From positions 20,914-84,913 of the forward strand of contig CAYXOR010000002.1 in the NCBI GenBank assembly GCA_964466895.1: a stretch of 64,000 nucleotides of DNA, given 5' to 3'. Of this stretch, positions 14,681 to 48,076 are shown piece by piece. The notes beneath the pieces were generated by a model. The model ran no database searches. It was given only the letters and a program-made list of their open reading frames with translations, and was not told the DNA's origin. The position numbers were made by a program, and so were the translations under genes. The stretch is from an uncultured Methylophilaceae bacterium (lineage in GTDB: Bacteria; Pseudomonadota; Gammaproteobacteria; Burkholderiales; Methylophilaceae). The first letter of the stretch is position 1; the number at the start of each line of letters is the position of its first letter.

Positions 14681-14688
14681 GAAAGAGT

Positions 14689-15783: not shown

Positions 15784-15811
15784 TCTTAATGTGTAATATG
15801 AGGTGGGTATT

Positions 15812-16951: not shown

Positions 16952-17526
16952 ATAAGTTGATTTTGATTGGTGGTGGTGGGCACTGTAAGTCATGTATTGA
17001 TGTTATTGAGCAATCAGGCTTACATGAGATTGTTGGTATCCTTGATAGGCAGGAGAATGTTGGTCAGAAAGTATTAGGGTATGACATCGTTGGAACAGAT
17101 GAGCAGATTGAAAGATGGGTAAACGAAGGGTGTGAATTTTTAGTTACTGTTGGGCAAGTAAGAAGCTCTCATGTTAGACAAGGGTTATATAGTAAACTCT
17201 TACAATATGAAGCAAAAATTGCTACGATTATTTCACCGCGGGCATATGTTTCAAAACATGCCGTGATAGAGGCTGGTTCGATTGTTATGCATGATGCTTT
17301 AATAAATGCAAATGCTCGTATTGGAAAAAACTGCATTATCAATTCTAAAGCACTGGTCGAGCATGATGCTGTGATTGGTGATCATTGTCATATTTCCACA
17401 GCTGCAACCATTAATGGAGGAACAGAAATTAAACGAGGGACATTTTTTGGAAGTAATGCAACAAGTAGAGAGTATATTGCATCTAAGGAAGAGGCTTTTA
17501 TAAAAGCTGGGAGCACCTTGCAGTGA
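16948..17526 (+). CDS. NeuD/PglD/LegH-family hexapeptide-repeat sugar N-acetyltransferase
   Basis: LILIGGGGHCKSCIDVIE N-terminal Rossmann-like domain followed by left-handed beta-helix repeats. GTGA overlap with the aminotransferase gene. Confidence 0.85.
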   Translation: MNKLILIGGGGHCKSCIDVIEQSGLHEIVGILDRQENVGQKVLGYDIVGTDEQIERWVNEGCEFLVTVGQVRSSHVRQGLYSKLLQYEAKIATIISPRAYVSKHAVIEAGSIVMHDALINANARIGKNCIINSKALVEHDAVIGDHCHISTAATINGGTEIKRGTFFGSNATSREYIASKEEAFIKAGSTLQ

Positions 17527-18410
17527 ATAAAAAAATTGCATTTTTAACAACTGTTTTCCCTATGAAAAGTTCCTATTTAGATGACTTCTTCAAGTCTCTC
17601 AACGAACAAACATATACAAATTTTGATGTTGTTGTTGTCAATGATGGCTATGTAAACTTTAGAGAAGTTATGGTCGAGTTCAGCAATTTAAATATTATTG
17701 AATTACAACATTCTGATACGGTTGCAAAGAATAGGGAATTCGGTATAAATTTTGTTAAAGAAAATGATTACGATATTTTGATTTTTGGAGATAGCGATGA
17801 TTATTTTGATAAGAATAGAGTCCGAATTTCAGTCGAATTATTAGCTAATACCGATATTGTTGTTAATGATCTCACACTATTTAGTGACGCGAATGGCATT
17901 TTTCATAGAAAATATATTTCTAATAGAGTTGTTGGGAATACACAGGTAACGCTTGAATTCATTAAAAATAAAAATATATTTGGGCTGTCAAATACTGCTA
18001 TAAATGTCATGATTTTGGGTGATATTTCTTTTGACAAAGACATGGTTGCTGTTGATTGGTATTTATATACTATTTTGTTATTGAAAAATAAAAAAGCATT
18101 GTTTACAAATAAAACAATAACTTATTATAGGCAATACGGAAACAATGCAATTGGTATGGGACTAGGTTTAGCAACTAAAGAAGCTATTCTAAAGAGTATA
18201 TTAGTTAAGAGTAAGCACTATCACCTATTGAAAAAAGAAGATGAGTCGTTTATAGCGCTCTATGAAAACAACCTTAAACTGAAACATGAGTTTGAAGAGC
18301 ATGCAAAACTTGAGGAGTTAAATACGCATGTGGAAAATCCACTATGGTGGGAAGACTTAACGGTTAAAACTGAAGAAAAGGAAACCCCATATGAAAATTC
18401 AAATAACTAA
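17523..18410 (+). CDS. Glycosyltransferase family 2-like protein
   Basis: FLTTVFPMKS...FDVVVVNDGY and GDSDDYF (DxD) motifs. Embedded between the acetyltransferase and the NeuB-like synthase. Confidence 0.7.
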   Translation: MNKKIAFLTTVFPMKSSYLDDFFKSLNEQTYTNFDVVVVNDGYVNFREVMVEFSNLNIIELQHSDTVAKNREFGINFVKENDYDILIFGDSDDYFDKNRVRISVELLANTDIVVNDLTLFSDANGIFHRKYISNRVVGNTQVTLEFIKNKNIFGLSNTAINVMILGDISFDKDMVAVDWYLYTILLLKNKKALFTNKTITYYRQYGNNAIGMGLGLATKEAILKSILVKSKHYHLLKKEDESFIALYENNLKLKHEFEEHAKLEELNTHVENPLWWEDLTVKTEEKETPYENSNN

Positions 18411-19452
18411 AACTAAAAATGTATCTAATTATTGTAAGCCTTATATTATTGCTGAACTTGGTTCAAATCATAATGGGAAAATGGCATTGGCTAAGCAATT
18501 AATTGTTGCAGCAAAGGCTGCTGGTGCTGATTGTGTGAAATTCCAAAGTTGGACAAAAGGTAGTATTTTTGCGAAAAAAAAATATCAAGATAACTATTTT
18601 ATTGCAGATGATTATAGGGATAGAACAGATTTCACTCTTGAAGAGATAGTTGAGACATATTCTATTTCAGAGGATGAACTTCTTGAAATGAAAAAATTCG
18701 CTGATGAAGTCGGAATTGACTGCACTTCAACACCATTTAGTAAAGCTGAGGCAGACTTCTTGGTCGATAAAATGGACACGCCATATATAAAAGTTGCCTC
18801 AATGGATCTCAATAATTACCCATTTTTAGAATATTTAGCTAAAAAAGGAAAGCCTATAATTATTTCTACAGGCTTAAGTGAGCTGTATGAAATTGATAAG
18901 GCTGTTGAGGTGATTGAAAATGCTGGGAATACGCAAATAGTAATTTTGCATTGTGTGTCAACATATCCACCTGTAGATACCGATGTAAACCTTAATAATA
19001 TTAAAACATTAATGGTGACATATCCAGAATACCCAATTGGTTTTTCAGATCATACTATAGGCACAGCAATTCCTTTAGCATCAGTTGCTTTAGGTGTTTG
19101 TGTGATAGAAAAACACTTTACGTTGGATAAAAATATGGACGGTTGGGATCATAAAGTTTCTGCCACAAAAGATGAAATGATGGAGATTGTTGAGAATTCA
19201 AAAAGGATATCAGAGGCTTTGGGCTCTTTTAGAATAACGGCTACAGAGTCAGAAGAGAAAAAGAGAGAGTTTAGAAGAAGTGTTGTTCTCGCACGAGATA
19301 TGAAGAAAGGTGAAGTGCTTGGCGTAAATGAGATTGATTATAAAAGGCCTGGGGGAGAATTTCCGCCAGAAATGACCGAATATTTAATTGGTAGAACTAT
19401 AAACAAAGATTTGTCGTTTGATCATATTTTAAAGAAAGAAGATCTTGTATAA
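18391..19452 (+). CDS. neuB: N-acetylneuraminate synthase family enzyme (NeuB/LegI-like nonulosonic acid synthase)
   Basis: PYIIAELGSNHNGKMALAKQLIVAAKAAGADCVKFQ, DHTIG, and a C-terminal SAF/antifreeze-like domain (FRRSVVLARDMKKGEVL). Confidence 0.9.
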   Translation: MKIQITKTKNVSNYCKPYIIAELGSNHNGKMALAKQLIVAAKAAGADCVKFQSWTKGSIFAKKKYQDNYFIADDYRDRTDFTLEEIVETYSISEDELLEMKKFADEVGIDCTSTPFSKAEADFLVDKMDTPYIKVASMDLNNYPFLEYLAKKGKPIIISTGLSELYEIDKAVEVIENAGNTQIVILHCVSTYPPVDTDVNLNNIKTLMVTYPEYPIGFSDHTIGTAIPLASVALGVCVIEKHFTLDKNMDGWDHKVSATKDEMMEIVENSKRISEALGSFRITATESEEKKREFRRSVVLARDMKKGEVLGVNEIDYKRPGGEFPPEMTEYLIGRTINKDLSFDHILKKEDLV

Positions 19453-20136
19453 ATGATAGCAATTATTCCTGCGAGAGGTGGGTCAAAAGGTTTGCCAGGC
19501 AAAAATATAAAAGAGTTTTGTGGCAAGCCAATGATTGCCTACACAATTGAAGCGGCAAAAAGATCTAAATTTATTTCTGACATTATTATTTCTACAGATG
19601 ATCAGAATGTTGCTGATATTGCCATTTCATATGGAGCTATCTGTCCATTTTTAAGACCGGAAGCGTTAGCCTCTGATGAAGCTTTAGCTATAGATAATTA
19701 TATCTACACAATAAACAGGTTAAATAAAGAGTGCGGGTATGAAATAAACGAGTTTGTCATATTGCAGCCTACATCACCACTTCGCAGGAGTGAAGATATT
19801 GATGGGGCAATTTTTCTATTTAATGAAAAAAATGCAGACTCTGTTGTTAGCTACACAATGGAAAGCCATCCAATAAGCTGGCACAAATTTCTGGATGATG
19901 ATCTGCAATTTGAGAATATTTTTGATGAGACTTTGCAAAATCGACAAAACAACAAGGTAAGCTACTTTCCAAATGGTGCTATATTCGTTTTTGATTATAA
20001 TCTGATAAAGAATAAAAAGTATTACAGTAATAAATCCTACGGATATGTGATGCCAAAGAACAGGTCTGTAGACGTGGATTGTGCTGATGATTTTGAGTAT
20101 GCGGAGTATTTATTTAGGAACGAGTGTGCAAAATAA
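19453..20136 (+). CDS. neuA: Acylneuraminate cytidylyltransferase family enzyme (NeuA/LegF-like CMP-nonulosonate synthetase)
   Basis: MIAIIPARGGSKGLPGKNIK and LQPTSPLR motifs. Confidence 0.9.
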   Translation: MIAIIPARGGSKGLPGKNIKEFCGKPMIAYTIEAAKRSKFISDIIISTDDQNVADIAISYGAICPFLRPEALASDEALAIDNYIYTINRLNKECGYEINEFVILQPTSPLRRSEDIDGAIFLFNEKNADSVVSYTMESHPISWHKFLDDDLQFENIFDETLQNRQNNKVSYFPNGAIFVFDYNLIKNKKYYSNKSYGYVMPKNRSVDVDCADDFEYAEYLFRNECAK

Positions 20137-21160
20137 TAGGCTAGTATTAAATAGTAATGCGAGTTTTGAACTGGCTATTAAGCTATTGGATCAGAATGGA
20201 AATGGTGTTTTGCCAGTTGTAGATGATAATGAAAAATTTATTGGTCTTATAACGGATGGTGATATTAGAAAAGCCATATTAAATAAAGAGTTAGATTTAG
20301 AGCACATTGTAAATAGAGATGCCTTTACACTTAGTGTTAAGTCTTCAAAAATGCAGCGCATACAATATCTTAAAGGTATAAAACGAAGGCAGCTGCCTTT
20401 AGTAGATGATGAAAATAAATTTATTGCTTTATTCACATTGGATGAAATTGAGTTTAATAAAAAGCCCAATGTTGTTGTAATTATGGTTGGGGGTTTAGGT
20501 GCTAGGCTGGGTGAGTTAACGAAGGATGTCCCTAAGCCTATGTTGCATGTAGGAGAAAAGCCGATCCTTGAAATCATCATTGAAAAGTTTATTGAGTTTG
20601 GTTTCAATAGATTCTATTTGGCAGTAAATCATAGAAAAGAAATTATTAAAGAGTATTTTAAAGAAGGCCGCAAATGGGGGGTGGACATAACCTACCTTGA
20701 AGAAAATAAAAGGTTAGGAACGGGAGGGGCTCTTTCTTTAATTGATGAAGTAATTAATGAGCCCATTATAGTGACTAATGGGGATGTTCTTACGGATATA
20801 GATTTTGATGAATTACTAAGTTTTCATAAAGCTAAAGATTCCGAAGCAACTATGTGTGTTCGTGAATATGAACATGTCATTCCTTATGGCGTTATAGAAA
20901 CAAATGTGGACAAGATTCTAGGTGTAAGTGAAAAACCAAAAATGAAATTTAATATCAATACAGGAGTATATGTCCTTAATCCTAACTTACTGAATGTTAT
21001 CCCTAAAAATCAATATTATGATTTACCATCACTTTTTAGTGAACTTATAGAAAAGGGTGTTTTCCCTTTTTGCTATAAAATGGTTGATTATTGGATTGAT
21101 ATTGGTAGAAAAGATGAGTATGTAAAAGTTAATGATGACCATGTAAAGAATATTATATAG
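20081..21160 (+). CDS. CBS-pair + nucleotidyltransferase fusion (PtmE-like sugar-1-phosphate nucleotidyltransferase)
   Basis: The N-terminus has two CBS-like repeats (LPVVDDNEKFIGLITDGDIRK; LPLVDDENKFIALFT). This is followed by VVIMVGGLGARLGELTKDVPKPML, the NTP-transferase signature. The start is uncertain: GTG 20081, ATG 20087/20099 or GTG 20126. Confidence 0.8.
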   Translation: MLMILSMRSIYLGTSVQNNRLVLNSNASFELAIKLLDQNGNGVLPVVDDNEKFIGLITDGDIRKAILNKELDLEHIVNRDAFTLSVKSSKMQRIQYLKGIKRRQLPLVDDENKFIALFTLDEIEFNKKPNVVVIMVGGLGARLGELTKDVPKPMLHVGEKPILEIIIEKFIEFGFNRFYLAVNHRKEIIKEYFKEGRKWGVDITYLEENKRLGTGGALSLIDEVINEPIIVTNGDVLTDIDFDELLSFHKAKDSEATMCVREYEHVIPYGVIETNVDKILGVSEKPKMKFNINTGVYVLNPNLLNVIPKNQYYDLPSLFSELIEKGVFPFCYKMVDYWIDIGRKDEYVKVNDDHVKNII

Positions 21161-21199: not shown

Positions 21200-22258
21200 A
21201 TGACTAATAGTAGCTCCAAAAATAATGCAAGTGAGCAAGTATGCATTGGGTATTCCGATGAAAAGTTAGAAGCGCTTAGTAAATTACAAACTAGATTTGA
21301 GTCGACTATTGTCCCTTGGGCAGCTTGGGAGTCAGAAAACTCAAGTTTTGGTAAAGCTTTTAGAAAGTGGGCATATTTCCCCAAGTTTCTACCACTATAC
21401 CTTTCTTCTGACCATGGTGTTCATTGGGGGGCTAGGTGTTGGCCTAATGAAATAGAGAGCAGATTCAAAAGTTTCTTTACCTGGAATAAAAAAAAATGCA
21501 ATGTAATGCGAAAAGTCCATCGTAAACGTGCTTATCACGTGTCACATCCTTGGGTTAATTATAGGAAGAAATACTTTCCGGAACTTCCAAATGCGAGAGC
21601 AGGAACCTTAGTCTTTTATGCGCACTCAAATACCACTACCACTCCTGTTTATGATGACTTAGATAAATATATAAATGATTTAAAGGCATTGCCAGAAAAG
21701 TATCAACCGATTGTGATTTGCCTTTCATTTCATGATATTAATAAAGAACTTCATAAGAAGTTTAGGAAATATCGGCTGCCTTTGGTCACTGCGGGAACAA
21801 CAAATTCTCAATTATTTGTAGATAGGTTTTACTCGCTAGCATATCAATTTCAGTTTTCATCATCATCAAATATTGGGTCTCATACGTATTATTTAATGGA
21901 AGCAGGAATACCATTTTTTCTTTATGGGCCTTATCCTCAATATAAACATAAAGGATCTTCTTTCGTAAAAGATGGGGATTTATCTCTCAGCAATTATGGC
22001 GATGACGAAGATATCAATGAATTAATGAAATTTAGAGAACTATTATCAACTAACCATGACGAAGTAACTCAAGAGCAATATGTAATTATATCTAAACACT
22101 TGGGCTTAGATTCTGAAATGTCTAGATTTAGAATGTCATTAATATTGTGGCGGGAGCTATTCGTGCATTTTGGCGATTTACTGACTGTTTATATAAGGCA
22201 AGTATTCAAGGTTATTTCCAAAATTACTGTGTTTGTTTTATCGAAGGGTAAACGTTGA
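21200..22258 (+). CDS. Hypothetical protein with no recognisable family (Rossmann/GT-B-like C-terminal half possible)
   Basis: 352-aa ORF with AGGTAGAGAAAG upstream. Its TGA overlaps the TTG start of the next gene. It contains an A9 tract at 21488-21496. Confidence 0.6.
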   Translation: MTNSSSKNNASEQVCIGYSDEKLEALSKLQTRFESTIVPWAAWESENSSFGKAFRKWAYFPKFLPLYLSSDHGVHWGARCWPNEIESRFKSFFTWNKKKCNVMRKVHRKRAYHVSHPWVNYRKKYFPELPNARAGTLVFYAHSNTTTTPVYDDLDKYINDLKALPEKYQPIVICLSFHDINKELHKKFRKYRLPLVTAGTTNSQLFVDRFYSLAYQFQFSSSSNIGSHTYYLMEAGIPFFLYGPYPQYKHKGSSFVKDGDLSLSNYGDDEDINELMKFRELLSTNHDEVTQEQYVIISKHLGLDSEMSRFRMSLILWRELFVHFGDLLTVYIRQVFKVISKITVFVLSKGKR

Positions 22259-24633
22259 AAAAGGGTAGCTCTAAAGCAAGGGTGCTCAAAGGTCTTGAAT
22301 CGAAAATTTCAATATTTAGAGTGCCAAAATTATTATTTTTTGACACAGCAACTTACATGACGTCTCCTGACCAGATAATATCTGAGGTACAAGAGTTTTT
22401 TTGTGAAAAAATCATAGTTGTACGCTCCTCAGCTTCTGATGAAGACGGTTCGCAACACACGCTTGCAGGGGAATATGATTCTGTACTGAATGTACCCTCT
22501 ACAGATCATGAAGCTATACAACAAGCAATTTCAACAGTAATTACAAGTTATAACCGTAACGGTGTACTTACAGGTAGGGATGAGGTTATTGTTCAAGAAA
22601 TGGTACTCAATACTAGTATGAGTGGTGTGATTTTCACCCATGATTTGAATACTGGCGCACCATACTATGTGATTAATTACGATGATGTGTCGGGTTTAAC
22701 TGATACTGTTACATCAGGTGGTGGTGAGTATTCTAACCGCACCTTATATATTCATCGTAGTGCATTAAATTCCCTTCGCTCTGAGCGTTTCCAGCATTTG
22801 ATGGCGGCGATACAAGAGCTTGAAAAAGTCATGGAAAGTCAGTTCCTTGATGTTGAGTTTGCACTGGGGGCTGATTTCACACCTTACTTACTGCAAGTTC
22901 GATCAATTACGACACAGCCAAACTGGAATAGAACTGTATCAAAAAGAATTGATAAAACGTTACGTGGTATTCAATCCTTTGTTAAACAGCGTATGAAACC
23001 TATGGCAAATACTTATGGAGCCACTACCGTTTTAGGGCAAATGCCGGATTGGAATCCAGCAGAAATGATTGGCCGTGCACCTAGAGCTTTAGCGTTCTCG
23101 TTGTATAAAACATTAATTACCGATCATGCATGGCGCATCGCAAGAAAAAAGATGGGGTATGCCGTACCTGAAGGTCAGAACTTAATGGTCTCTCTTGCTG
23201 GGCAGCCCTTTATTGATGCTAGGTTAAGCTTTCATTCTTATTTACCAAGTAACCTACCTTCTGAAATTGGAGAAAAGTTAGTTGATAAATGGGTTATACA
23301 GTTGAAAGATAACCCAGAACTACACGATAAAATAGAATTTGATGTGGCAATAACCACATATAGCTTTGATATTGACACTAAAATGGAGCTGTTAGTGGGC
23401 AATGCTTTGGGCTTAGCTGAAAAAAATAAATTCAAAGAATTGTTACGCTTGCAGACACATAAGTTTCTTTCTAACTCAGGTGAGTTTTGTATTGATGGTG
23501 CACTGTCCAAAATTGAGGCTTTGTCACATAAGCAAAATATAATGAATGGCGAACCTGTTGCAGGCGATGTTTCTGCAATATTTACAATGGTTGAGGATTG
23601 CGTTCATTTAGGGACTATTCCGTTTTCGATTTTAGCTAGACACGGCTTTATCGCAAAAACCATTTTATTGTCACTCAATACTCGCGGGATATTGTCTATG
23701 CAAGATATTCACCAGATACAGTCAGGGGTTCATACTGTTGCCAGTGACTTGGTCAGTGATATGCACAACCTGCAGACGGGCAATTTATCGCATGAAGCGT
23801 TCATGACTCAATATGGGCACTTACGACCAGGTACATATGACATTTTGTCACAAAGGTATGACCAGATGGCTGAATTTGGTCATAATAGTGGCAACCTTAA
23901 GTATGGAAATGAACATGTTGACTTTACGTTGACTAGCGCACAACTGCAGAAAATTGATACCATGTTAGTGCAGGAAGGCTTTAATGATATAGATAGCCAA
24001 AAACTCCTACAATATATCCAAGCAGCTACAGCTAGTCGTGAATATGCAAAATTTATTTTTACGCGCACAGTAAGTGACCTCTTAGAAGTGATTGCAGCTT
24101 TTGGGGAGCAGAACAACTTAAGTCGTGATGAATTGTCACATATCCCGCTCGATAATATTCTGGATACAGTTACCTCTAGTCACGAAAAAGTTGTAGAGAA
24201 AAGATTACGTGAAATTTCAGAAGAGCAGGCTGAACGGCATGCACTAGGTGTTGCTATCCGACTTCCCCAAGTCTTGTTTGATGAGGCGGGGGTGCATGTT
24301 GTGCCTTTTCAAGTTAGCCACCCAAACTTTATCACACATAAAAAAGTGACAGGGCCATGCATTAATCTTGGGCCTGATATCTCAGCGCCACCTTTAAAAG
24401 GTATGATTGTGGTTATTGAAAATGCTGACCCAGGTTTTGATTGGATATTTTCCCAAGAAATCGCTGGACTTATCACAAAATATGGTGGTGCTAATTCACA
24501 TATGGCTATTAGGTGCGCAGAGTTTGGTATTCCCGCAGCAATCGGCTGTGGTGAACAAAGGTATGAGTTGTTCTGTAATTCAAATCAATTGTTACTAGAT
24601 TGTGCAGCTGGTCTTATTAAGGCACTACATTAG
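22255..24633 (+). CDS. PEP-utilising-enzyme-like phosphohistidine kinase lacking the PEP/pyruvate domain (Cj1418 L-glutamine kinase-like)
   Basis: PPDK_N-type motif IVVRSSASDEDGSQHTLAGEYDSVLNV. Swivel-domain motif GGANSHMAIRCAEFGIPAAIGCG lies about 44 aa from the C-terminus, with no TIM-barrel domain after it. The TTG start at 22255 keeps the GSSKARVLKGL N-terminal motif. Confidence 0.7.
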   Translation: MKKGSSKARVLKGLESKISIFRVPKLLFFDTATYMTSPDQIISEVQEFFCEKIIVVRSSASDEDGSQHTLAGEYDSVLNVPSTDHEAIQQAISTVITSYNRNGVLTGRDEVIVQEMVLNTSMSGVIFTHDLNTGAPYYVINYDDVSGLTDTVTSGGGEYSNRTLYIHRSALNSLRSERFQHLMAAIQELEKVMESQFLDVEFALGADFTPYLLQVRSITTQPNWNRTVSKRIDKTLRGIQSFVKQRMKPMANTYGATTVLGQMPDWNPAEMIGRAPRALAFSLYKTLITDHAWRIARKKMGYAVPEGQNLMVSLAGQPFIDARLSFHSYLPSNLPSEIGEKLVDKWVIQLKDNPELHDKIEFDVAITTYSFDIDTKMELLVGNALGLAEKNKFKELLRLQTHKFLSNSGEFCIDGALSKIEALSHKQNIMNGEPVAGDVSAIFTMVEDCVHLGTIPFSILARHGFIAKTILLSLNTRGILSMQDIHQIQSGVHTVASDLVSDMHNLQTGNLSHEAFMTQYGHLRPGTYDILSQRYDQMAEFGHNSGNLKYGNEHVDFTLTSAQLQKIDTMLVQEGFNDIDSQKLLQYIQAATASREYAKFIFTRTVSDLLEVIAAFGEQNNLSRDELSHIPLDNILDTVTSSHEKVVEKRLREISEEQAERHALGVAIRLPQVLFDEAGVHVVPFQVSHPNFITHKKVTGPCINLGPDISAPPLKGMIVVIENADPGFDWIFSQEIAGLITKYGGANSHMAIRCAEFGIPAAIGCGEQRYELFCNSNQLLLDCAAGLIKALH

Positions 24634-24648
24634 GAGGGAAGTATATTT

Positions 24649-25176
24649 ATGGTTATTTGGATTATTGGTTTATCTGGCACGGGAAAAACCACTTTGGCCA
24701 ATGAGGTTGTCAATAGGATTCGCCAATTAAAGAGAAAGGTAGTTATGTTGGATGGTGATTTAATCAGGGACCTTTTTGGAAATGACGTAGACCACACTAT
24801 AGAAGGTCGAAAGCGTAATGCTGAAAGGTTGTCGGTTTTAACAAAGTATCTCGCTGATCAAGATATACATGTAGTTGCGGCAGTGCTTTCAATCTTTCCT
24901 GAATGGCGGCTCTGGAATAGAGAGAATATTAATCATTACTCAGAAGTGTATATAAAATCCTCTATGGAGACTCTGGCTAGACGAGACATTAAAAACTTAT
25001 ATGCAAGGGCAATTAAGGGTGAAATTGTAAATGTGGTTGGTGTGGACATCCCATTTCCTGAACCTCAGAACCCAGAGTTGGTTATAGAGAATGATGTTGA
25101 CCGAGTTGAATTCAGTGAATTTATAGATCAAATAATGAACCTTAATGTGGTGAGAGAGACTCTAGAAAAAGCATGA
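24649..25176 (+). CDS. APS-kinase-fold small kinase (Cj1415 cytidine diphosphoramidate kinase-like / CysC-like)
   Basis: 175 aa. P-loop IIGLSGTGKTTLA and the MLDGDLIRD motif. GGAGGGAAG RBS. Confidence 0.75.
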   Translation: MVIWIIGLSGTGKTTLANEVVNRIRQLKRKVVMLDGDLIRDLFGNDVDHTIEGRKRNAERLSVLTKYLADQDIHVVAAVLSIFPEWRLWNRENINHYSEVYIKSSMETLARRDIKNLYARAIKGEIVNVVGVDIPFPEPQNPELVIENDVDRVEFSEFIDQIMNLNVVRETLEKA

Positions 25177-26384
25177 TTTTTCTTGCATTAACCATAGTAT
25201 TTATCATTCTTCTTGAAGTTGGGTTATATGCCGTCGTGTTTATACAGCGACGCAGCTTTCCTTGGTTGATAACTGAGGCGGATGAGTTGCCAGCATTTGA
25301 TTCTCAAGCACTTCATAAATTCTTAGAATACAGTTTTGACCCACATTTAGGATGGGTCAGGCGACCTAATTCAAGCGGTACAGAAAATGGACAAAATGGT
25401 AAAATCACTTTTAATATAGACTCATCAGGCTCCCGTAGCAATTCCTTAGAAAAGTCATCTCCAGTTATGGCTGCTTTTGGAGACTCTTACGCTTTTTGTC
25501 GTCAAGTAGAGGATGATGAAACATGGGAAAGTCAACTAGCACAACAAAAAAGTTTCGGTGTAATGAATTTTGGAGTTGGCAATTACGGGGTTGATCAAGC
25601 GCTATTACGCTACAAGAGTATGAGCTTGCCAGAAACGGTGCAAGTTGTCGTCATGGCGTTTGTGCCAGAAACTATTTGCAGAATACAATCTTATTGGAAA
25701 CATTATCTAGAGTTTGGAAATACATTTGCGTTTAAGCCACGATTCATGCTCAACTCAAATGACAATCTAATTTTGTTAAACAACCTTATACGTGGTAATG
25801 AGGATTATTTGGCTTATCGCGAAAAACTTCCTGAAATTCAAAAAAAAGATGGGTTTTATAAGAAGAAATTTCGTTCACAGCAATTTCGTTTTCCGTATCT
25901 CTTTAGCTTAATGCGAAACCCGATAAAGCAAAGCTTGCTAATTTCAGCAGTGGCCATTAGAGGAGCATGTCGTGTTTTAGGCATTTCAAGCGCTAAGATA
26001 GAAAACCTACCATTCAAACTGGTAATGAAAAGAAACCTTCAAGATGCGCATGAATTATACAAAGAAGATAAATCGAAACAACTTTTGAACGCCATTTTGT
26101 TGAGTTTTAGAGATGAAGCTATTCAACGGGGGCATACTCCATTAATTGTTGTTATGCCTCAATTACTAGACATTATGCTAGGCGAAAGTAGTGTTGCTCC
26201 ATACCAAGAGTACTTTAATGGATTAGCGAAAAGCTTGCCCGTAATTGATCTTACAAATGAGTTTATTAAGGCTGATTTTGAGAAACTTTATATTAATGAT
26301 CAATATGGAGGGCACTTATCAGTTAGAGGAAACTCTTTGGTTGCTAAAGAAATATCACTTTGGCTTAAATCACAGGGCCTGTAA
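25173..26384 (+). CDS. Membrane-anchored SGNH/GDSL-hydrolase-like protein
   Basis: N-terminal TM helix. AAFGDSYAF (block I GDS) and NFGVGNYGVDQ (block II-like). ATGA overlap with the kinase gene. Confidence 0.6.
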   Translation: MIFLALTIVFIILLEVGLYAVVFIQRRSFPWLITEADELPAFDSQALHKFLEYSFDPHLGWVRRPNSSGTENGQNGKITFNIDSSGSRSNSLEKSSPVMAAFGDSYAFCRQVEDDETWESQLAQQKSFGVMNFGVGNYGVDQALLRYKSMSLPETVQVVVMAFVPETICRIQSYWKHYLEFGNTFAFKPRFMLNSNDNLILLNNLIRGNEDYLAYREKLPEIQKKDGFYKKKFRSQQFRFPYLFSLMRNPIKQSLLISAVAIRGACRVLGISSAKIENLPFKLVMKRNLQDAHELYKEDKSKQLLNAILLSFRDEAIQRGHTPLIVVMPQLLDIMLGESSVAPYQEYFNGLAKSLPVIDLTNEFIKADFEKLYINDQYGGHLSVRGNSLVAKEISLWLKSQGL

Positions 26385-26408
26385 AAGGCAGAGGAAGGAA
26401 AGTACTTG

Positions 26409-27197
26409 ATGAGAATTACTTATCGAAATGCAAATAATAAAGATTATTGGACAAAGCGTTGGGACGATATCCCCGCTGATGCTCCTATGGAAAACTTGAA
26501 TGTATATCCACTCAAATACGCGCAGATGACTGTGAAAGATGATGCTGGAAAAATTCTTGAAGCAGGCTGTGGTGCTGGGCGTGTTTTACGTTATTACCAT
26601 AACCGGGGTTACAATATTTTAGGCTTCGATTTTATTGATGTTGCCATCAGCAAGCTCAAGAAAATTGATCCGTCATTGCAAGCAGAAGTAGGAGATATAA
26701 CTAAACTGAGGTTTTCCGATCAATCGTTTAAGTATGTTTTAGCTTTTGGGCTTTATCACAACCTTGAGCATGGCTTAGATAAAGCTATTCAAGAGACACA
26801 TAGAGTATTAGAACAGAATGGATTAGTCTGTGCGTCTTTTAGAGCGGACAATATACAGACGAAACTTACGGATTGGTTGGCTAATAGAAAATCAAAAAAT
26901 AAACAAGGGGCAGAGGTTGGGTCTTTTCACAAAATGAACTTAACTCGCAATGAATACGAACAGTTGTTCATTCGTGCTGGTTTTGATATTAACTTTATTG
27001 GACCAGTAGAAAATATGCCAATACTATATAAATTCTCTATTTTTAGATCTACAAAGCATAAGGTATTTGACGAAAATAGAGCGCGCATGGAAGGCTATCG
27101 TCTATCTTGGTTTGGACAGATGCTCCAAAATTTATTGATGAAGGTTTTGCCCGATCAATTTTGTAATATTTACGTTATTATCGCACGCAAAGTCTGA
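26409..27197 (+). CDS. Class I SAM-dependent methyltransferase
   Basis: KILEAGCGAGRVLRYY motif I and LGFDFIDVAI motif II. ATG 26409 is preferred over TTG 26406. Confidence 0.8.
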   Translation: MRITYRNANNKDYWTKRWDDIPADAPMENLNVYPLKYAQMTVKDDAGKILEAGCGAGRVLRYYHNRGYNILGFDFIDVAISKLKKIDPSLQAEVGDITKLRFSDQSFKYVLAFGLYHNLEHGLDKAIQETHRVLEQNGLVCASFRADNIQTKLTDWLANRKSKNKQGAEVGSFHKMNLTRNEYEQLFIRAGFDINFIGPVENMPILYKFSIFRSTKHKVFDENRARMEGYRLSWFGQMLQNLLMKVLPDQFCNIYVIIARKV

Positions 27198-27280
27198 TTA
27201 TCAACTCTCAATTAAAAATTAGTGTCGGTATTACTCAGCGCATAGATGATATAAAAGGTCGTGATGAGTTTCGTGATGCT

Positions 27281-27856
27281 GTGGATCAGAGGTTGTTAAA
27301 GTGGATCATACAAGCAGGGTTCTTACCAGTTGTAGTTCCAAATGTATTGTTCGATACCGGCTGTTCTAACCAAGAGCAGGGCGCAATAGTTTTAGAGCAT
27401 TGGTTGCAAACTCAGTCGCTTGGTGCTTTGCTCCTCTCGGGAGGGAATAATATAGGTGATTTTCCTCAACGCGATGCGACTGAATGTTATCTATTAGCGT
27501 GGGCAGAAGCTAATAACATTCCAACCTTGGGCATCTGTAGAGGAATGCAAATGATGGCGGTATGGGCTGGCGCGCAGTTAAGAGAAGTTGGCGGGCATGT
27601 TAGAACGCGGCATCAATTGACGGCTCATGGAGGTGTTGGTGACTGGCCTGTATCTGTAAATAGTTACCATGACTGGAATATACAACATTGCCCCAAACAG
27701 TTTAAGGTCTCTGCCACGGCAGAAAATGGGGACATAGAGGCTATGTGTCATCAAACTTTGCCTTGGGAGGGCTGGATGTGGCATCCTGAGCGCGAACAAA
27801 AAATCTGCATAGAGGACACAATGAGAGTTAAAAGGTTATTTAATGGAAAACAATAA
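27281..27856 (+). CDS. Class I glutamine amidotransferase-like / peptidase C26 gamma-glutamyl hydrolase (Cj1417-like)
   Basis: LGICRGMQMM nucleophile elbow and WMWHPE His-Glu. The frame is open back to 27167 and encodes a family-typical N-terminus (KISVGITQRIDD..RDAVDQ) with no ATG/GTG/TTG. The true start is therefore probably near 27194-27200. Confidence 0.75.
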   Translation: MDQRLLKWIIQAGFLPVVVPNVLFDTGCSNQEQGAIVLEHWLQTQSLGALLLSGGNNIGDFPQRDATECYLLAWAEANNIPTLGICRGMQMMAVWAGAQLREVGGHVRTRHQLTAHGGVGDWPVSVNSYHDWNIQHCPKQFKVSATAENGDIEAMCHQTLPWEGWMWHPEREQKICIEDTMRVKRLFNGKQ

Positions 27857-28625
27857 AAATATCAAAGCAATTATTCTTGCCGCTGGAGAAGGTACACGCC
27901 TGCGGCCTTACACGTTGGAAAAACCGAAATGTTTGGTTGAAGTTGATAATAAAAGCTTACTAGACCGTCAACTGTCAGTGTTATCAAGTTCAGGAGTCAC
28001 TTCAATAGTTATTATTGGCGGCTACAAGGCTGAAATGTTGCAACGTGATGGTATTGATCTGAAAATTAACCCAAGGTACGCAGAGACCAATATGGTTTGG
28101 ACCTTGTTTTGTGCTGAAGGTGAACTTGAAGGCGATGTCATTATCTCTTATGGAGATATTGTTTATTCTCAGGAAGTACTACAGTCTTTATTGGCCTCTG
28201 ATGCAGATATTGCCGTTGCAATCGACTTGGAATGGGAATCGTATTGGAGAGCAAGAAATGAAGAGCCTCTTGATGATGCTGAAACATTGAAGATGCACCC
28301 AGATGGACGCATTTACGAGATTGGAAATAAACCCAAGTCTTTGGGCGAGATTGAAGGTCAATACATGGGCTTAATTAAAGTGACTCAAGAAGGAGTTAAT
28401 GGATTAAAATCCGTATTCCAAAAAGCACACGATGCAGAAGGTTTACTTGGTAAACCTGTAGAAAACGCTTATATGACGGACCTGTTGCAGGCGATGATTA
28501 ATGCGAACTATTCAGTGCAATCGGTACCTGTGAAAGCTGGCTGGGTAGAGGTGGATACCGTAAGCGATTTACATTCTACACCGACAAAAAATCGACTTTT
28601 AAAAATCGAAGAGGCTATTGTTTAA
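27843..28625 (+). CDS. LicC/Cj1416-like cytidylyltransferase (nucleotidyltransferase family)
   Basis: IKAIILAAGEGTRLRPYTLEKPKCLVEV signature; 260 aa. 14-nt overlap with the upstream gene. Confidence 0.8.
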   Translation: MENNKNIKAIILAAGEGTRLRPYTLEKPKCLVEVDNKSLLDRQLSVLSSSGVTSIVIIGGYKAEMLQRDGIDLKINPRYAETNMVWTLFCAEGELEGDVIISYGDIVYSQEVLQSLLASDADIAVAIDLEWESYWRARNEEPLDDAETLKMHPDGRIYEIGNKPKSLGEIEGQYMGLIKVTQEGVNGLKSVFQKAHDAEGLLGKPVENAYMTDLLQAMINANYSVQSVPVKAGWVEVDTVSDLHSTPTKNRLLKIEEAIV

Positions 28626-29383
28626 TGGCTGATTTAATTAGTGGTTTCTTTTCTGACAAGTACGCTAACCATAAAGCAATTGGAGCTAACGTATTGCTTT
28701 TGCTTATGTATAGATTTTCTTATCCATTTTCTTTTGTATTGTATAGACTGGGATTTAGCCCGAACCAAATAACCACCTTATCAACTTTTTCTGCAATACT
28801 GGCAGCAACTTTTCTTATACTCGGCTATCATGAAATCTGGTTTTTGGTTTTCTGGTCAGGGTCGATATTGTTGGATTTTTGCGATGGCACTGTAGCAAGA
28901 ATGTCTAACAATATATCTAAAACTGCTTTTCGGTATGATCATATGAGTGATATATTTAAAATATTTATCATTATGCTTGCCACAGGTGTTTATTATAATA
29001 GTTTATTAATCTGGCTGTCGTCTATGACAGCTTGTTTTTTCTTTATGTATTTCATGCTACTAAATCATGAGCTTAGTAATATAACTAAATTGTTAGAAAG
29101 AAAGAAAAACAAATCTCAAGAACAACAATTTAAAAGTGCTGCTACCCCAAGTAAAGGTATATTTAAATTGGTTAAAACATTAATTTCTAATGATTTTATT
29201 TTAAAGTTTTTAAGGATTGTTTATATAGCATTAACAACTATTAATGGACACACTCTTTTGTTATTTTTGATGATGCCTTTCAATCAAAAATTGGCTGCAT
29301 GTAGTTTTTTCTATCTGACTACGCTTTCTATTTTAGGTGTCATTAGTCGAATTTCAGCACTTAGGAAGATTCCTAAACAATGA
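28625..29383 (+). CDS. CDP-alcohol phosphotransferase-family integral membrane protein
   Basis: DFCDGTVAR-MSNNISKT-A-FRY-D-HMS-D matches DxxDG(x2)AR(x8)[G->A](x3)D(x3)D. About 6 TM helices. TAATG overlap with the cytidylyltransferase gene. Confidence 0.7.
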   Translation: MADLISGFFSDKYANHKAIGANVLLLLMYRFSYPFSFVLYRLGFSPNQITTLSTFSAILAATFLILGYHEIWFLVFWSGSILLDFCDGTVARMSNNISKTAFRYDHMSDIFKIFIIMLATGVYYNSLLIWLSSMTACFFFMYFMLLNHELSNITKLLERKKNKSQEQQFKSAATPSKGIFKLVKTLISNDFILKFLRIVYIALTTINGHTLLLFLMMPFNQKLAACSFFYLTTLSILGVISRISALRKIPKQ

Positions 29384-29392
29384 TTGGTAAAT

Positions 29393-29410
29393 AACCCCTT
29401 TAAAGGGGTT
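29393..29410. terminator. 18-bp perfect palindrome AACCCCTTTAAAGGGGTT: hairpin, weak terminator/attenuator or protein site
   Basis: Read directly. It lies in the 49-nt gap between the CDP-alcohol phosphotransferase gene and the ABC transporter gene, followed by GGAATTTTAATG. Confidence 0.3.
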
Positions 29411-29432
29411 GGAATTTTAATGTATAGCAGAA

Positions 29433-31211
29433 ATGAAACTAAGTATAAATAAAATATATACAATAATCGGTGAAGAGTATAAAAAAAGAAGCTTTTTTTT
29501 ATTTTCTGGCGTGCTTGTAATCGCTCTTTTTGAAGTGTTGAGTATAGCCATCGTATTGCCATTTATGAAGCTGGTTTTAGACATACATGCATCTAGTAAA
29601 ACTGCATATGTAGTGAAGATACAAGAATTTTCCACATTAGATGAGAATCAAATAATTATTGTATTTGGGTTGGGTATTATTGGCTTATATATAATCAAAA
29701 ACATATTGCATTACTGCTTAAATAAATTTCAGCTAACTGAGTTACATAAAATACGTGCAAACGTATCCAGAAAAGTATTTAGCTTGTATATTCATATGGA
29801 CTACAGCACCTTTATTGAAAAAAATACTGCATCTTTAATTCATAATTCAACAGGTCAAGTTGCTAATTTTGCATTAGTTTTTTTACAGTCATTATTGTTT
29901 ATCTTGTCTGAATTAGTCATCATTATTGCAATTGCTATTTTGCTTTTTATCATTAACCCGAAAATAATGATAATCCTTTGTACGCTCTTATGTTTGGTTG
30001 GCGCTATCATGATTGCTTTCTTTAAAAGAAGACTAAAAGAAGTCGGAAAAGAGCAGAATTTTGCAATAGTTAAAATGTATAAAACAATTAGCGAAGGTAT
30101 TGGAGCATTAAAAGAAATTAAAATTTTACAGGTTGAAAGTTACTTTATTGAATTATTTAATACTTACTCAAAGAAGTATCAAGAAGTGGCCGTGCTTGTA
30201 AGTAAAATGCAAGTGGTGCCAAAGCTTATATTTGAAGTGATTTTTATCTCAGGACTTATCGGGGTGGTAGTGGTCGCCGAATTGCTCAAGTTAAACCTAA
30301 AAGATATCATTCCTACGTTGATTATTTTTGCACTAGCTTTTTTTAAGCTGCTCCCTTCAGTTAATAAAGTTATCAGTCTTAATAACGCAATGATTGCGAG
30401 CCAGATATCATTTGATACATTGTATGATGAGCTGAAAAATGCCCATAACTGCAACCCTACAATTGAAAAGAAAGAAAATTTAAAGGCTGCAAGCCAGTTT
30501 AAAGACAAAATTTCTTTTGAGAATGTAAGCTTCTCTTATGATGGTAAAAAGCAAGTGTTTAATGACTTTTCTCTTGTAATACCTAAACATTCAACAGCTG
30601 CATTTGTAGGTCGTTCAGGGGCAGGGAAAACAACTTTAATTGATATGATTCTAGGTTTGATAACACCAGAATCTGGACGTGTTTTATTTGATGATTTTGA
30701 TGTTAGTCAGAATGTAAGTTTTTGGCATCAAAAAATAAGTTACATTCCGCAAACAATTGCATTTATTGATGATACGATACGAAAAAATATTGCGTTAGGT
30801 GTAAGTGAGATCGATGAAATCCAGCTGTCAAAATGTGTCGTTGATGCACAGTTAAAAGAGTTTGTATTAACGCTACCAGATGGCCTGGAAACAAAAATTG
30901 GTGATAAAGGGGTTAAGCTTTCAGGAGGCCAACGCCAAAGAATTGGCATTGCAAGAGCTTTGTATAAAAATCCTGATATTTTGATTTTTGATGAGGCGAC
31001 AAGTGCTTTAGATGTCGAAACTGAACGGGCTTTAACTGAGTCAATTAAAAGTTTAGGTAAGAGTAAAACGCTCATTATTGTGGCACATAGAATTAGTACT
31101 ATTAAAAATAGCGATATTATTTTTGTGCTAGAGAACGGTAAGGTAAAGGATAGTGGTACTTTTGATACGCTGTTATTAACTAATAAATGGTTTCAGGATA
31201 TTAATGAGTAA
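29433..31211 (+). CDS. Fused TMD-NBD ABC exporter (MsbA/PglK/Wzk-like)
   Basis: 592 aa. Six N-terminal TM helices, Walker A GRSGAGKTT, signature LSGGQRQR and Walker B ILIFDEATSALD. Confidence 0.9.
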   Translation: MKLSINKIYTIIGEEYKKRSFFLFSGVLVIALFEVLSIAIVLPFMKLVLDIHASSKTAYVVKIQEFSTLDENQIIIVFGLGIIGLYIIKNILHYCLNKFQLTELHKIRANVSRKVFSLYIHMDYSTFIEKNTASLIHNSTGQVANFALVFLQSLLFILSELVIIIAIAILLFIINPKIMIILCTLLCLVGAIMIAFFKRRLKEVGKEQNFAIVKMYKTISEGIGALKEIKILQVESYFIELFNTYSKKYQEVAVLVSKMQVVPKLIFEVIFISGLIGVVVVAELLKLNLKDIIPTLIIFALAFFKLLPSVNKVISLNNAMIASQISFDTLYDELKNAHNCNPTIEKKENLKAASQFKDKISFENVSFSYDGKKQVFNDFSLVIPKHSTAAFVGRSGAGKTTLIDMILGLITPESGRVLFDDFDVSQNVSFWHQKISYIPQTIAFIDDTIRKNIALGVSEIDEIQLSKCVVDAQLKEFVLTLPDGLETKIGDKGVKLSGGQRQRIGIARALYKNPDILIFDEATSALDVETERALTESIKSLGKSKTLIIVAHRISTIKNSDIIFVLENGKVKDSGTFDTLLLTNKWFQDINE

Positions 31212-32505
31212 TACTGTTTATAAAAGTAAAAAACACTCCGTTGCACAAGTTGAATTCCTTAACTATGCTGATCAAAGTTTGAACCTAAACATGCCTAAAT
31301 ATTCTATTATTATTCCTACATATAATGGCATTAGCTATTTGCCTACCTGTATAGAAACAATCATTTCTCAAAACTATGATAGTTATGAGCTAATAATAAG
31401 TGATGATAACTCTGTAGATGGCACTAGGGACTATTTGGAAAAGCTAAGCCACCCTAATATTAAAGTTATCTATCCACCTGAGTCGTTAAGCATGACCGAG
31501 CATTGGGAATGGGCTTTATCTCATGCAATAGGTAAATGGCAGATTTTTGTTGGGCAAGATGATGGGCTGCAACCTTACTTCTTCCAATTGGCTGACAAAT
31601 TAACAAATATTGCGAAAGAGAAGGGATTAAGAACTATTACGTCTTCTAGAGCTTATTTTTTTTGGGAAGGGTGTAGCTATGTTTATGGGGATATTGCTGT
31701 AGCGTATGTGGCTGAAAATAAAATAAGAGTGTGTAATTTCAGATATCAAATATTGAAAACAATTTTGGGGTTTCAAAATTACTTTGAGCTACCCCAGATG
31801 TATACAACAGCACTTTTTCATAAAGAGTTGCTAGATGAAGCGCGAGTAAAACAGAGTGGAAAAGTGTTTTCCTCTCACCCGCAAGATGCAAACTTAGCTG
31901 CATTAGCATGTAGTTTAGAAAAAGAATACCTAAAGTCATATATTCCACTAGGTTGGGTTGGATCTTCACCAAAAAGTGCAGGTATGGCAATTTTTAGCGA
32001 TATAGAAAAAGCCGATGAAAGCAATACAAAAAAACTTAGTGAGTTGAGAGATGAGTACAAGAAAAAAGTAAACAAAAGTAAAATTAAATATCATGAGTTA
32101 GCTGGGGATTTTTCATTTGGGAATCTTTCTATTTATTTTTGGCAGGCTTTATTAACAACATCAAGCTTACGAACAATATGGACAAAGACATTGCTAACGT
32201 CAAAGCTATTTAGAATAATGCTGTTCAGCACTATTCGGAATGAAGATAAAAAAGAAGCGAATTTATCAAAATTCAAGCACTTAATTAAAACCAATAACAT
32301 ATCGTTATGGACTGTTTCCATCACTGCATATTTTTTTAATTTAATACGCTTTTCTTGGTACGTTGTGCAATTATTATGGAGAGCAATACGGAAGCTATCC
32401 TTTAAGGTGAGTTATTCCAAGTATTGGGATAAAGATATCGAAATAAGTATGTTAAAAGCATCTTCAGAAATTAACGACAAACTAAAAACTCAAAATTGGA
32501 TGTAG
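31204..32505 (+). CDS. Glycosyltransferase family 2 with a C-terminal membrane-associated extension
   Basis: YSIIIPTYNGISYLPTCIETIISQNYDSYELIISDDNSVDGT; VGQDDG. Confidence 0.8.
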   Translation: MSNTVYKSKKHSVAQVEFLNYADQSLNLNMPKYSIIIPTYNGISYLPTCIETIISQNYDSYELIISDDNSVDGTRDYLEKLSHPNIKVIYPPESLSMTEHWEWALSHAIGKWQIFVGQDDGLQPYFFQLADKLTNIAKEKGLRTITSSRAYFFWEGCSYVYGDIAVAYVAENKIRVCNFRYQILKTILGFQNYFELPQMYTTALFHKELLDEARVKQSGKVFSSHPQDANLAALACSLEKEYLKSYIPLGWVGSSPKSAGMAIFSDIEKADESNTKKLSELRDEYKKKVNKSKIKYHELAGDFSFGNLSIYFWQALLTTSSLRTIWTKTLLTSKLFRIMLFSTIRNEDKKEANLSKFKHLIKTNNISLWTVSITAYFFNLIRFSWYVVQLLWRAIRKLSFKVSYSKYWDKDIEISMLKASSEINDKLKTQNWM

Positions 32506-32521
32506 TGTAAAAGGTTATATT

Positions 32522-35289: not shown

Positions 35290-35953
35290 ACCTCCTCTTG
35301 TAGAATGGTTTTTAACGACAGTCAAATGCATTTTATTGGAAATACAATATAAAAAACAAAAGCTAAAAATACTGGGGTGTTCAAGCATAGCAAAGAGTAG
35401 CTTTGGTTTTAGAAATACAATTTATAAAAATGCTAATTTAGATACCGTTAACTTAGGTGATTTCAGCTATGTAGGAGTAAATACTAGCGTCTCTCATACT
35501 AAAATTGGCAAATTTTGCTGCATAGCTCCAGATTGTAAAATTGGGTTAGGTAAGCACCCATCAAGTATTTTTGTGTCTATAAATCCTATTTTTTTTTCAA
35601 CATTAAGACAAGCGCAAATTACATTTTCAAGTAAAAGCTATTTCGAAGAGTTTGAAAATGTTGAGATAGAGAATGATGTTTGGATTGGTGCTAATGCAAT
35701 AGTCATGGGTGGTGTGACCATATCAAACGGAGCTATTGTTGGTGCGGGGTCTGTTGTTACAAAAGATGTTCCACCTTACGCGGTAGTGGGAGGAGTGCCT
35801 GCAAGAGTCATTAGATATAGATTTAATGAAGAGCAGATTGCAGAATTGTTAAAGAAAAAGTGGTGGGACATGGAGTTAGCGTATTTGGAAGATAATTATA
35901 AATCATTCCATAATATTGAAGATTTTCTAAGTGAAGACAGTGCGAAACTTTAA
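35273..35953 (+). CDS. Hexapeptide-repeat acetyltransferase (xenobiotic/CatB-Vat-like)
   Basis: [49 protein letters not shown]. Confidence 0.8.
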
Positions 35954-35967
35954 AGTGAGCATATCAA

Positions 35968-48073: not shown

Positions 48074-48076
48074 GAA

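Follow-up and report, generated by a model that had tools for sequence, protein, structure and literature searches.

A predicted phosphoramidate-donor cassette with a candidate CDP-alcohol phosphotransferase in a glycan locus of an uncultured Methylophilaceae bacterium

A 64,000-nucleotide stretch of a contig from an uncultured Methylophilaceae bacterium (hereafter the window; positions 20,914 to 84,913 of CAYXOR010000002.1, forward strand) carries a seven-gene cassette, which grows to eight genes when the open reading frame (ORF) U352 at its 5′ end is counted. Four of these genes resemble those that build the donor for O-methyl phosphoramidate (MeOPN) modification in Campylobacter jejuni, and, like the MeOPN genes, the cassette sits in a surface-glycan locus. 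Judging from its sequence, we consider it probable that the cassette produces phosphoramidate in activated form and that this is most likely attached to a lipid-linked glycan that contains nonulosonic acid. The predicted assignment of the four core genes to the phosphoramidate-donor pathway is supported by homology to the C. jejuni enzymes. New relative to the characterised system are the methyltransferase and the candidate transferase, both different from those of C. jejuni, and an accessory module that can be swapped.

In the proposed pathway, a 792-amino-acid kinase is predicted to convert glutamine and adenosine triphosphate (ATP) into N-phosphoglutamine, adenosine monophosphate, and inorganic phosphate. 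By homology to the C. jejuni enzymes, a cytidylyltransferase would join phosphoglutamine to cytidine monophosphate (CMP) taken from cytidine triphosphate, yielding cytidine diphosphate (CDP)-L-glutamine; a C26 hydrolase would remove glutamate to leave cytidine diphosphoramidate; and an enzyme resembling adenosine 5′-phosphosulfate (APS) kinase would add a 3′-phosphate. The cassette methyltransferase would then O-methylate the phosphoramidate, probably still on the nucleotide. A CDP-alcohol phosphotransferase, standing in for the unrelated Cj1421/Cj1422 transferases of C. jejuni, would take the phosphoramidate off the cytidine nucleotide and place it, at the inner membrane face, on an acceptor hydroxyl, and a PglK-like ABC exporter would flip the product. 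The overall logic is thus probably that of C. jejuni: make the donor, methylate, transfer. A broader conjecture, against which we still incline slightly, is that outside Campylobacter the phosphoramidate is installed by an unrecognised transferase class, CDP-alcohol phosphotransferase-family here and TagF-like elsewhere, that would use 3′-phosphorylated, probably O-methylated cytidine diphosphoramidate as donor.

Homologues of the Campylobacter jejuni donor enzymes

A tblastn scan of all 64 kb with the four C. jejuni core proteins gave one match for each, at the expected ORF, so the set of Cj1418, Cj1415, Cj1417, and Cj1416 types announced in the preliminary description is indeed present at the ORFs that it had named. 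In pairwise comparisons (BLASTP of each window protein against its C. jejuni counterpart), identities range from 29 to 40% and E-values from 4e-15 to 4e-126. The window shares with cj1415c-cj1418c all four enzyme types, their NCBIfam families, and the catalytic residues, including the phospho-His.

The C. jejuni reference proteins were taken from a genuine MeOPN locus (L005), which we reached through mutagenesis primers for the cj1416 region (PMC3907429). Primer CS-350 had no exact match in the GTDB genomes, and primer CS-351 matched a metagenome fragment of 27% G+C that encodes part of a Cj1418-like protein; a search with that fragment led to a 779-amino-acid C. jejuni protein, the head of a cluster of 4885 sequences. 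Locus L005 encodes, in order, a DUF2972 transferase, two methyltransferases, Cj1418 (779 amino acids), Cj1417 (C26), Cj1416 (nucleotidyltransferase), Cj1415 (APS-kinase-like), KpsC, and KpsS. Campylobacter orthologues are at least 62% identical to the Cj1418-type query fragment, whereas the host of the window is not a Campylobacter. No Campylobacter enzyme is among the PDB sequence matches of the window proteins.

The L-glutamine kinase homologue (22255-24633, 792 amino acids) aligns with Cj1418 over its full length (30.9% identity, 797 columns, E = 4e-126). Its residues 5 to 791 match NCBIfam model NF004508 (PRK05849) with 831.6 bits, above the cutoff of 501 (Cj1418 itself scores 1172 bits), while the protein scores at most 62 bits on the rival models for phosphoenolpyruvate (PEP) synthase and 44 bits on that for rifamycin phosphotransferase. 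The earlier statement that it is not a PEP synthase holds. The protein consists of an ATP-grasp domain and a phospho-His swivel domain with a family-specific region between them; Pfam recognises PF01326 (PPDK_N) and PF00391 (PEP-utilizers) only, and the PEP/pyruvate TIM barrel is missing, as had been noted. Within the swivel motif GGANSHMAIR, the histidine is residue 749 of 792. It aligns with His737 of Cj1418, reportedly the residue found to be phosphorylated in the 2018 work of Taylor et al., and it is invariant across 46 diverse family members.

The 3′-kinase homologue (24649-25176, 175 amino acids) has an APS-kinase fold with the P-loop and LDGD motif kept, and is 36.9% identical to Cj1415 over 149 amino acids (E = 8e-32). 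It scores 172 bits on NF004041 (PRK05541), the cytidine diphosphoramidate 3′-kinase subfamily model that also recovers Cj1415 (291 bits; cutoff, 127). On the apsK model TIGR00455, it and Cj1415 score 120 and 127 bits, respectively, both below the cutoff of 138.7. A neighbour-joining tree, which lacks bootstrap support, places the two proteins in a cassette-linked clade, with E. coli CysC and a CysNC fusion outside it. These results agree with the suggestion that the small kinase is not a bona fide CysC. Among the scanned window ORFs of at least 120 amino acids, there is also no ATP sulfurylase or sulfotransferase domain by which the kinase could be explained as CysC, again as proposed before.

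The gamma-glutamyl-CDP-amidate hydrolase homologue is 28.6% identical to Cj1417 over 133 amino acids (E = 4e-15). Its best NCBIfam match is NF045546, with 82.2 bits as against 48.7 bits for GMP synthase subunit A and 329 bits for Cj1417. Because 82.2 bits is below the curated cutoff of 250, we do not count the protein as a curated equivalog and class it as a homologue for which the same role is predicted. The Cys-His-Glu triad of class I amidotransferases is kept (GICRGMQ and MWHPERE in the window, GICRGAQ and MWHIERE in Cj1417). The preliminary description identified this gene correctly and placed it at 27281-27856, the extent of the mechanically called ORF (191 amino acids), a start that calls for correction. 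A conserved N-terminal strand, ISVGITQRIDD, lies in frame 5′ of the GTG, with no stop codon and no ATG, GTG, or TTG in between, and the real start is almost certainly upstream of 27281. The gene probably begins at CTG 27194 or ATT 27197/27218, overlapping the methyltransferase stop (27194-27856 in the longest form), and the apparent gap of 83 nucleotides before it is for that reason not intergenic.

The phosphoglutamine cytidylyltransferase homologue (27843-28625, 260 amino acids; COG1213, LicC-like) is 40.2% identical to Cj1416 over 249 amino acids (E = 4e-61, 184 bits). The two proteins have the motifs AAGxGxRLxPxTxxxPKC, ISYxDIVY, and DAETLKM in common. The best PDB sequence match of the window protein is LicC, with 64.5 bits over 104 residues. 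Among the NCBIfam models, there is none dedicated to either the window cytidylyltransferase or Cj1416.

The linkage of these enzymes extends well beyond the window. Of 47 surveyed GTDB loci in which the kinase gene is flanked by at least 6 kb on either side, 43 have all four core genes together, and the hydrolase gene is co-located in 45. At least 20 representatives of the kinase family, of about 1000-1100 amino acids, are fusions of a Cj1416-like cytidylyltransferase with the kinase (P0166-P0267), and one (P0248) is a fusion of the kinase with the C26 hydrolase. Gene order differs between the two systems: the window has kinase, 3′-kinase, accessory module, methyltransferase, hydrolase, and cytidylyltransferase, whereas C. 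jejuni has Cj1418-1417-1416-1415.

Methyltransferase, variable module, and candidate transferase

The ORFs from 21200 to 31211 all lie on the + strand and are densely packed. The junctions are overlaps of 4, 4, 14, and 1 nucleotides and gaps of 15 and 21 nucleotides; one of the 4-nucleotide overlaps is that of the U352 stop with the kinase start, and the CDP-alcohol phosphotransferase gene is translationally coupled to the cytidylyltransferase gene, its start overlapping the stop of the latter. All ORFs of the preliminary description were recovered on this strand at the coordinates it gave, every motif that it quoted was found in their translations, and Pfam confirmed its domain names in the respective ORFs (APS_kinase, Methyltransf_11/25, Peptidase_C26/GATase, and NTP_transferase). 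Its gene set was incomplete, since it omitted two conserved cassette members, at 25173-26384 and 28625-29383.

The class I S-adenosylmethionine-dependent methyltransferase (26406-27197, start at 26406 or 26409, 263 amino acids; Pfam Methyltransf_11/25) had been regarded as a counterpart of Cj1419/1420. This identification fails, as the protein has no significant similarity to Cj1419/1420 (best BLASTP E = 0.17). It is instead 61-84% identical to the copies in other cassettes (L002, L003, L007, L008, L009, L010, and L090-L093) and, with up to 84% identity, is the most conserved cassette protein. Of 47 other cassettes, 11 have a gene for a Cj1419/20-like methyltransferase, and none of these 11 has the window-type methyltransferase or the accessory module described below; that module accompanies the window-type methyltransferase in 14 of 14 loci. 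There are also fusion proteins of the APS-kinase-like enzyme with the methyltransferase (L088 and L089). Given these fusions and the strong conservation of the methyltransferase, there is a hint that methylation occurs on the nucleotide.

Between the 3′-kinase and methyltransferase genes lies U403 (25173-26384, 403 amino acids), which has no Pfam match. Its GDS and GxGN blocks and a C-terminal H381 are invariant in 10 homologues, and a profile search returned the GDSL lipolytic protein 4rsh, weakly (E = 3e-4) and over blocks I-III only. A single-sequence structure model, with a mean predicted local distance difference test (pLDDT) score of 36.5, is unusable beyond its sole confident part, an N-terminal membrane helix at residues 2 to 28. 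U403 is found at the equivalent position in L002, L007, L008, and L092, and is replaced in L003, L090, L091, and L093 by a protein of about 246 amino acids plus a formyltransferase-like protein of about 255 amino acids (L093, 6312-7800; L003, 12926-14420). The swap is seen even against L093, an otherwise syntenic contig with downstream genes 69-87% identical to those of the window. U403 thus appears to represent a variable “X module” of the cassette, putatively membrane-anchored and, on a weak match, SGNH/GDSL-like.

U352 (21200-22258, 352 amino acids), which directly precedes the kinase gene, has no Pfam or NCBIfam match, and a PDB profile search with it gave nothing meaningful; hhalign detected no similarity to TagF-like proteins. 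Homologues with 51-62% identity lie directly 5′ of the kinase gene in L091, L008, and L010, and in L089 one lies directly 5′ of the gene for the APS-kinase-methyltransferase fusion. It is possible that U352 is an accessory or acceptor-related gene.

The candidate transferase is a membrane protein of the CDP-alcohol phosphotransferase family (28625-29383, 252 amino acids; PF01066, CDP-OH_P_transf, 37 bits against a cutoff of 22). It carries the signature D84-x2-D87-G-x2-A-R-x8-A-x3-D105-x3-D109, whose four Asp residues are invariant in 57 homologues; D84, D87, G88, A91, R92, D105, and D109 are all invariant, and residue 101 is Ala where the motif has Gly. The AlphaFold2 model (pLDDT 90.7) has an all-helical fold, and the best Foldseek matches are AF2299 and IPCT-DIPPS (probability 1.00, TM-score 0.52-0.59). 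Thus, the protein shares the four-Asp signature with AF2299, IPCT-DIPPS, PIP synthase, and PgsA, and its predicted fold matches AF2299 and DIPPS, whereas it is only 11-19% identical to these proteins in sequence. It differs from them also in its genetic linkage, to the 3′-kinase and donor genes rather than to genes for lipid synthesis.

The family of this protein is small (177 matches among word-filtered candidates). In all six independently found contexts, its gene adjoins genes for a cassette-type APS-kinase-like enzyme and a methyltransferase. Four of the six lie directly 3′ of a full cassette (Dechloromonas, a Halothiobacillaceae metagenome-assembled genome [MAG], and two metagenome contigs); the other two lie directly 3′ of an APS-kinase-methyltransferase fusion gene, in a Psychroserpens MAG (L088, 6724-8759) and in Methylophaga (L089, 6744-8726). 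Because the phosphotransferase tracks the 3′-kinase and the methyltransferase, it fits an enzyme that uses a 3′-phosphorylated cytidine nucleotide as donor. Of the cassette proteins, it is also the one with the lowest conservation (about 40% identity, versus 55-84% for the rest). A best-conserved methyltransferase and a least-conserved phosphotransferase are the pattern expected if the former acts on an invariant small-molecule substrate and the latter on a variable acceptor.

Homologues of the C. jejuni transferases Cj1421/22 (NF058596/DUF2972) were not found at E ≤ 1e-3 in a tblastn search of the whole window, nor in 80 related non-Campylobacter loci. Among the 47 surveyed loci, the cassette ends with a CDP-alcohol phosphotransferase gene in 5 and with a gene for a TagF-like Glyphos_transf protein in 8 (Pfam confirmed the latter in Herminiimonas, Alteromonas, Pseudomonas, Aeromonas, and Rubricella), the remainder having nothing recognisable at this position. 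The TagF-like proteins belong to the CDP-glycerol glycerophosphotransferase family; like CDP-alcohol phosphotransferases, the enzymes of that family remove a substituted phosphate from its CDP donor and place it on a hydroxyl. The Cj1421-type transferase has no similarity to TagF-like proteins detectable by hhalign. In both systems, then, a methyltransferase and a transferase or candidate transferase are encoded with the donor genes (Cj1419/20 and Cj1421/22 in C. jejuni), while the window differs in lacking Cj1421/22, in having another class I methyltransferase and a CDP-alcohol phosphotransferase candidate, and in its extra SGNH-like gene. No other CDP donor pathway is obvious in the window, whose one further cytidylyltransferase-type gene is of the CMP-nonulosonic acid synthetase type. 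From the gene linkage, we infer that the CDP-alcohol phosphotransferase is the phosphoramidate transfer enzyme, which would use the CDP-linked donor and release CMP.

Alternative substrates and acceptors

Several observations weigh against the proposed pathway. Known CDP-alcohol phosphotransferases use donors without a 3′-phosphate and mostly make lipids or small solutes, and we know of none that transfers phosphoramidate. The donor proposed for the window would carry P-NH2 and a 3′-phosphate, whereas the donors of known family members carry P-O-alcohol. Many cassettes have no recognisable transferase nearby. In the Psychroserpens and Methylophaga contexts, no gene for a glutamine kinase, hydrolase, or cytidylyltransferase lies within 8 kb; the trio found there may use another donor, or the missing genes may lie elsewhere. 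At 29-40% identity to the characterised enzymes, the substrates of the core enzymes are assigned by homology, and the hydrolase scores below the curated cutoff of its family. Finally, COG1213 cytidylyltransferases take other phospho-substrates as well, as with CpgD and LicC (PMC12275187).

Some of these points would suit a different acceptor, with the donor pathway as described and the CDP-alcohol phosphotransferase loading phosphoramidate onto a membrane lipid or small alcohol to form a lipid head group. The characterised PF01066 members act mainly on such compounds, the closest solved folds of the 252-amino-acid protein are AF2299, DIPP synthase, and PIP synthases, and its JGI name is “phosphatidylglycerophosphate synthase.” Here and in many genomes, however, the cassette is embedded in glycan loci, with glycosyltransferase genes, nonulosonic acid genes, and a PglK-like exporter gene, and in other cassettes the place of the CDP-alcohol phosphotransferase is taken by TagF-like enzymes, whose targets are glycan or polyol polymers. 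We therefore regard a lipid acceptor as unlikely.

The donor itself could also be different, if the kinase substrate were not glutamine or if another phospho-compound were cytidylylated, so that a MeOPN-homologous cassette would make some other CDP-activated group and the decoration would be a phosphodiester. The modest identity of the core enzymes to those of C. jejuni leaves room for this, as do downstream cassette genes unlike those of C. jejuni and the occurrence of the kinase-methyltransferase-phosphotransferase trio without the first three enzymes nearby. The substrates of COG1213 enzymes vary, and Cj1416 is promiscuous with Mn2+ (PMC12275187). Against such a product stand the score of the kinase, above the curated cutoff of NF004508, a model that Cj1418 defines, and the retention of a glutamine-amidotransferase-type hydrolase with the kinase and cytidylyltransferase, both in the 43 loci with the complete core and in fusions. 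Because the hydrolase is retained, removal of a gamma-glutamyl carrier, which is the logic of the phosphoramidate route, is implied, and we consider another CDP-activated group improbable.

Chance adjacency of housekeeping enzymes (PEP synthase or an antibiotic phosphotransferase, CysC, a GMP-synthase-like amidotransferase, and a sugar nucleotidyltransferase), which the generic domain names given by Pfam alone and the NCBI label “PEP-utilizing enzyme” of kinase relatives might suggest, is very hard to credit given the NF004508 score and missing TIM barrel of the kinase, the sub-cutoff apsK score of the small kinase and its separation from CysC in the unbootstrapped tree, the lack of sulfurylase and sulfotransferase among the scanned ORFs, and a four-gene linkage that is conserved across phyla and extends to fusions. 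A pairing of PEP synthase or rifamycin phosphotransferase with CysC was likewise rejected on the model scores and conserved linkage. An unrelated LicC-type pair of cytidylyltransferase and CDP-alcohol phosphotransferase was also considered and rejected, in view of the 40% identity between the cytidylyltransferase and Cj1416 and because the phosphotransferase tracks the 3′-kinase.

Genomic context, distribution, and significance

The region 5′ of the cassette (12003-21160, + strand) holds legionaminic-type nonulosonic acid biosynthesis genes and an MBOAT gene pair, with Pfam matches to Polysacc_synt_2, MBOAT, DegT, PglD_N/Hexapep, NeuB, CTP_transf_3, and CBS plus NTP_transferase. The nonulosonic acid neighbourhood proposed earlier is therefore real. 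Among 78 related loci, 16 have NeuB-type genes no more than 9 kb from the kinase gene, and 22 have DegT aminotransferase genes near it. Thus, the link to nonulosonic acid genes recurs and is not special to the window. The MBOAT acyltransferase gene is followed by a gene for a 364-amino-acid protein without a Pfam match (13196-15783 together), and similar pairs precede the cassette in L002 and L092. The MBOAT protein and its partner are probably an O-acylation system for the same glycan.

The cassette is followed by genes for a PglK-like exporter, several glycosyltransferases, an AsnB-like amidotransferase, methyltransferases, and acetyltransferases. The PglK/MsbA-like ABC exporter (29433-31211, + strand, 592 amino acids; Pfam ABC_membrane and ABC_tran) has PglK as its best NCBIfam match, with 375 bits, below the cutoff; an ABC exporter gene also lies 3′ of the CDP-alcohol phosphotransferase gene in L088 and L093. 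It is likely the flippase for a lipid-linked glycan. The window from 29433 to 41237 is syntenic with positions 10804-20759 of the Logan contig L093, with genes 59-87% identical, and the AsnB-like amidotransferase gene of the window (32522-34366) is absent from that contig. A second polysaccharide system, at 47261-54280, encodes a LuxR-type regulator, a sugar transferase, a Poly_export/SLBB protein, a chain-length determinant (PEP-CTERM-associated by its JGI name), and a ParA-like ATPase. With this export set, the exopolysaccharide context of EpsA/PEP-CTERM type that had been described is also confirmed.

Base composition sets the cassette apart from its surroundings. G+C content is 0.386-0.396 over 22-28 kb of the window (22001-28000) versus 0.33-0.35 in both flanks, a rise of about 4-6 points that is consistent with a horizontally exchanged module. 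The seven-gene order (kinase, 3′-kinase, U403, methyltransferase, hydrolase, cytidylyltransferase, and CDP-alcohol phosphotransferase) is the same in Methylomonas methanica, a Propionivibrio MAG, and metagenome contig L092, and a Polynucleobacter MAG has the first six cassette genes in unchanged order. Cultured carriers include Methylomonas methanica MC09, Dechloromonas denitrificans, and Herminiimonas arsenitoxidans.

Among the candidates scored, about 4000 proteins fall in the kinase family at E ≤ 1e-10, and at E ≤ 1e-30 the family forms 1561 clusters (50% identity). Kinase genes occur in at least 591 GTDB species representatives, their carriers including Proteobacteria, Planctomycetota, Omnitrophota, Peregrinibacteria, Verrucomicrobiota, Bacteroidota, Acidobacteria, Dehalococcoidia, Syntrophomonadaceae, Pelagibacter, Prochlorococcus, and Woesearchaeota. 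For several close homologues of the 792-amino-acid kinase, “glutamine kinase” is already the JGI name. In view of these numbers and names, the novelty that the preliminary description saw in a “new lineage” was overstated: the cassette is widespread and already annotated in part by pipelines, and rarity is not supported. Because the window is one member among hundreds, its value is that of a clean example rather than a unique discovery. Kinase homologues are present in Pelagibacter/SAR11 single-cell genomes, a Prochlorococcus genome, and Woesearchaeota MAGs, mostly with further cassette genes (L025, L041, L044, L053, L057, L073, L076, L079, and L083). The modification may thus occur in very abundant marine microbes and in archaea.

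Reviews describe MeOPN and its glutamine kinase as Campylobacter-specific (PMC6429109, PMC9561416), and the methylation and transfer steps of C. jejuni were still unresolved in 2025 (PMC12409886). Outside Campylobacter, our literature search turned up only one paper on a related cytidylyltransferase and a 2024 preprint in which a structure-based prediction points to a MeOPN-like cluster in Borg elements; a C. botulinum paper citing work on MeOPN contributed nothing further. In the literature searched, the variant cassette, be it with CDP-alcohol phosphotransferase, TagF-like, or SGNH genes, was nowhere found described. A non-methylated phosphoramide is chemically proven on the lipopolysaccharide of Xanthomonas campestris and Shewanella sp. 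MR-4 (as cited in PMC3907429 and PMC3210612). This is the kind of product that the window cassette predicts. To our knowledge, no link from gene to structure has been made for the phosphoramide of either organism.

We propose that the donor pathway is a mobile four-gene unit, spread across many phyla and joined to at least three alternatives for the final part of the pathway: Cj1421/22, a CDP-alcohol phosphotransferase, and a TagF-like enzyme. The variant cassette supplies concrete candidates for the phosphoramidate transfer step and a genetic handle with which to find N-P-containing glycans in environmental bacteria. If the conjectured transferase class is real, phosphoramidate-decorated surface glycans would be widespread across phyla, SAR11 and Prochlorococcus included, rather than a peculiarity of Campylobacter.

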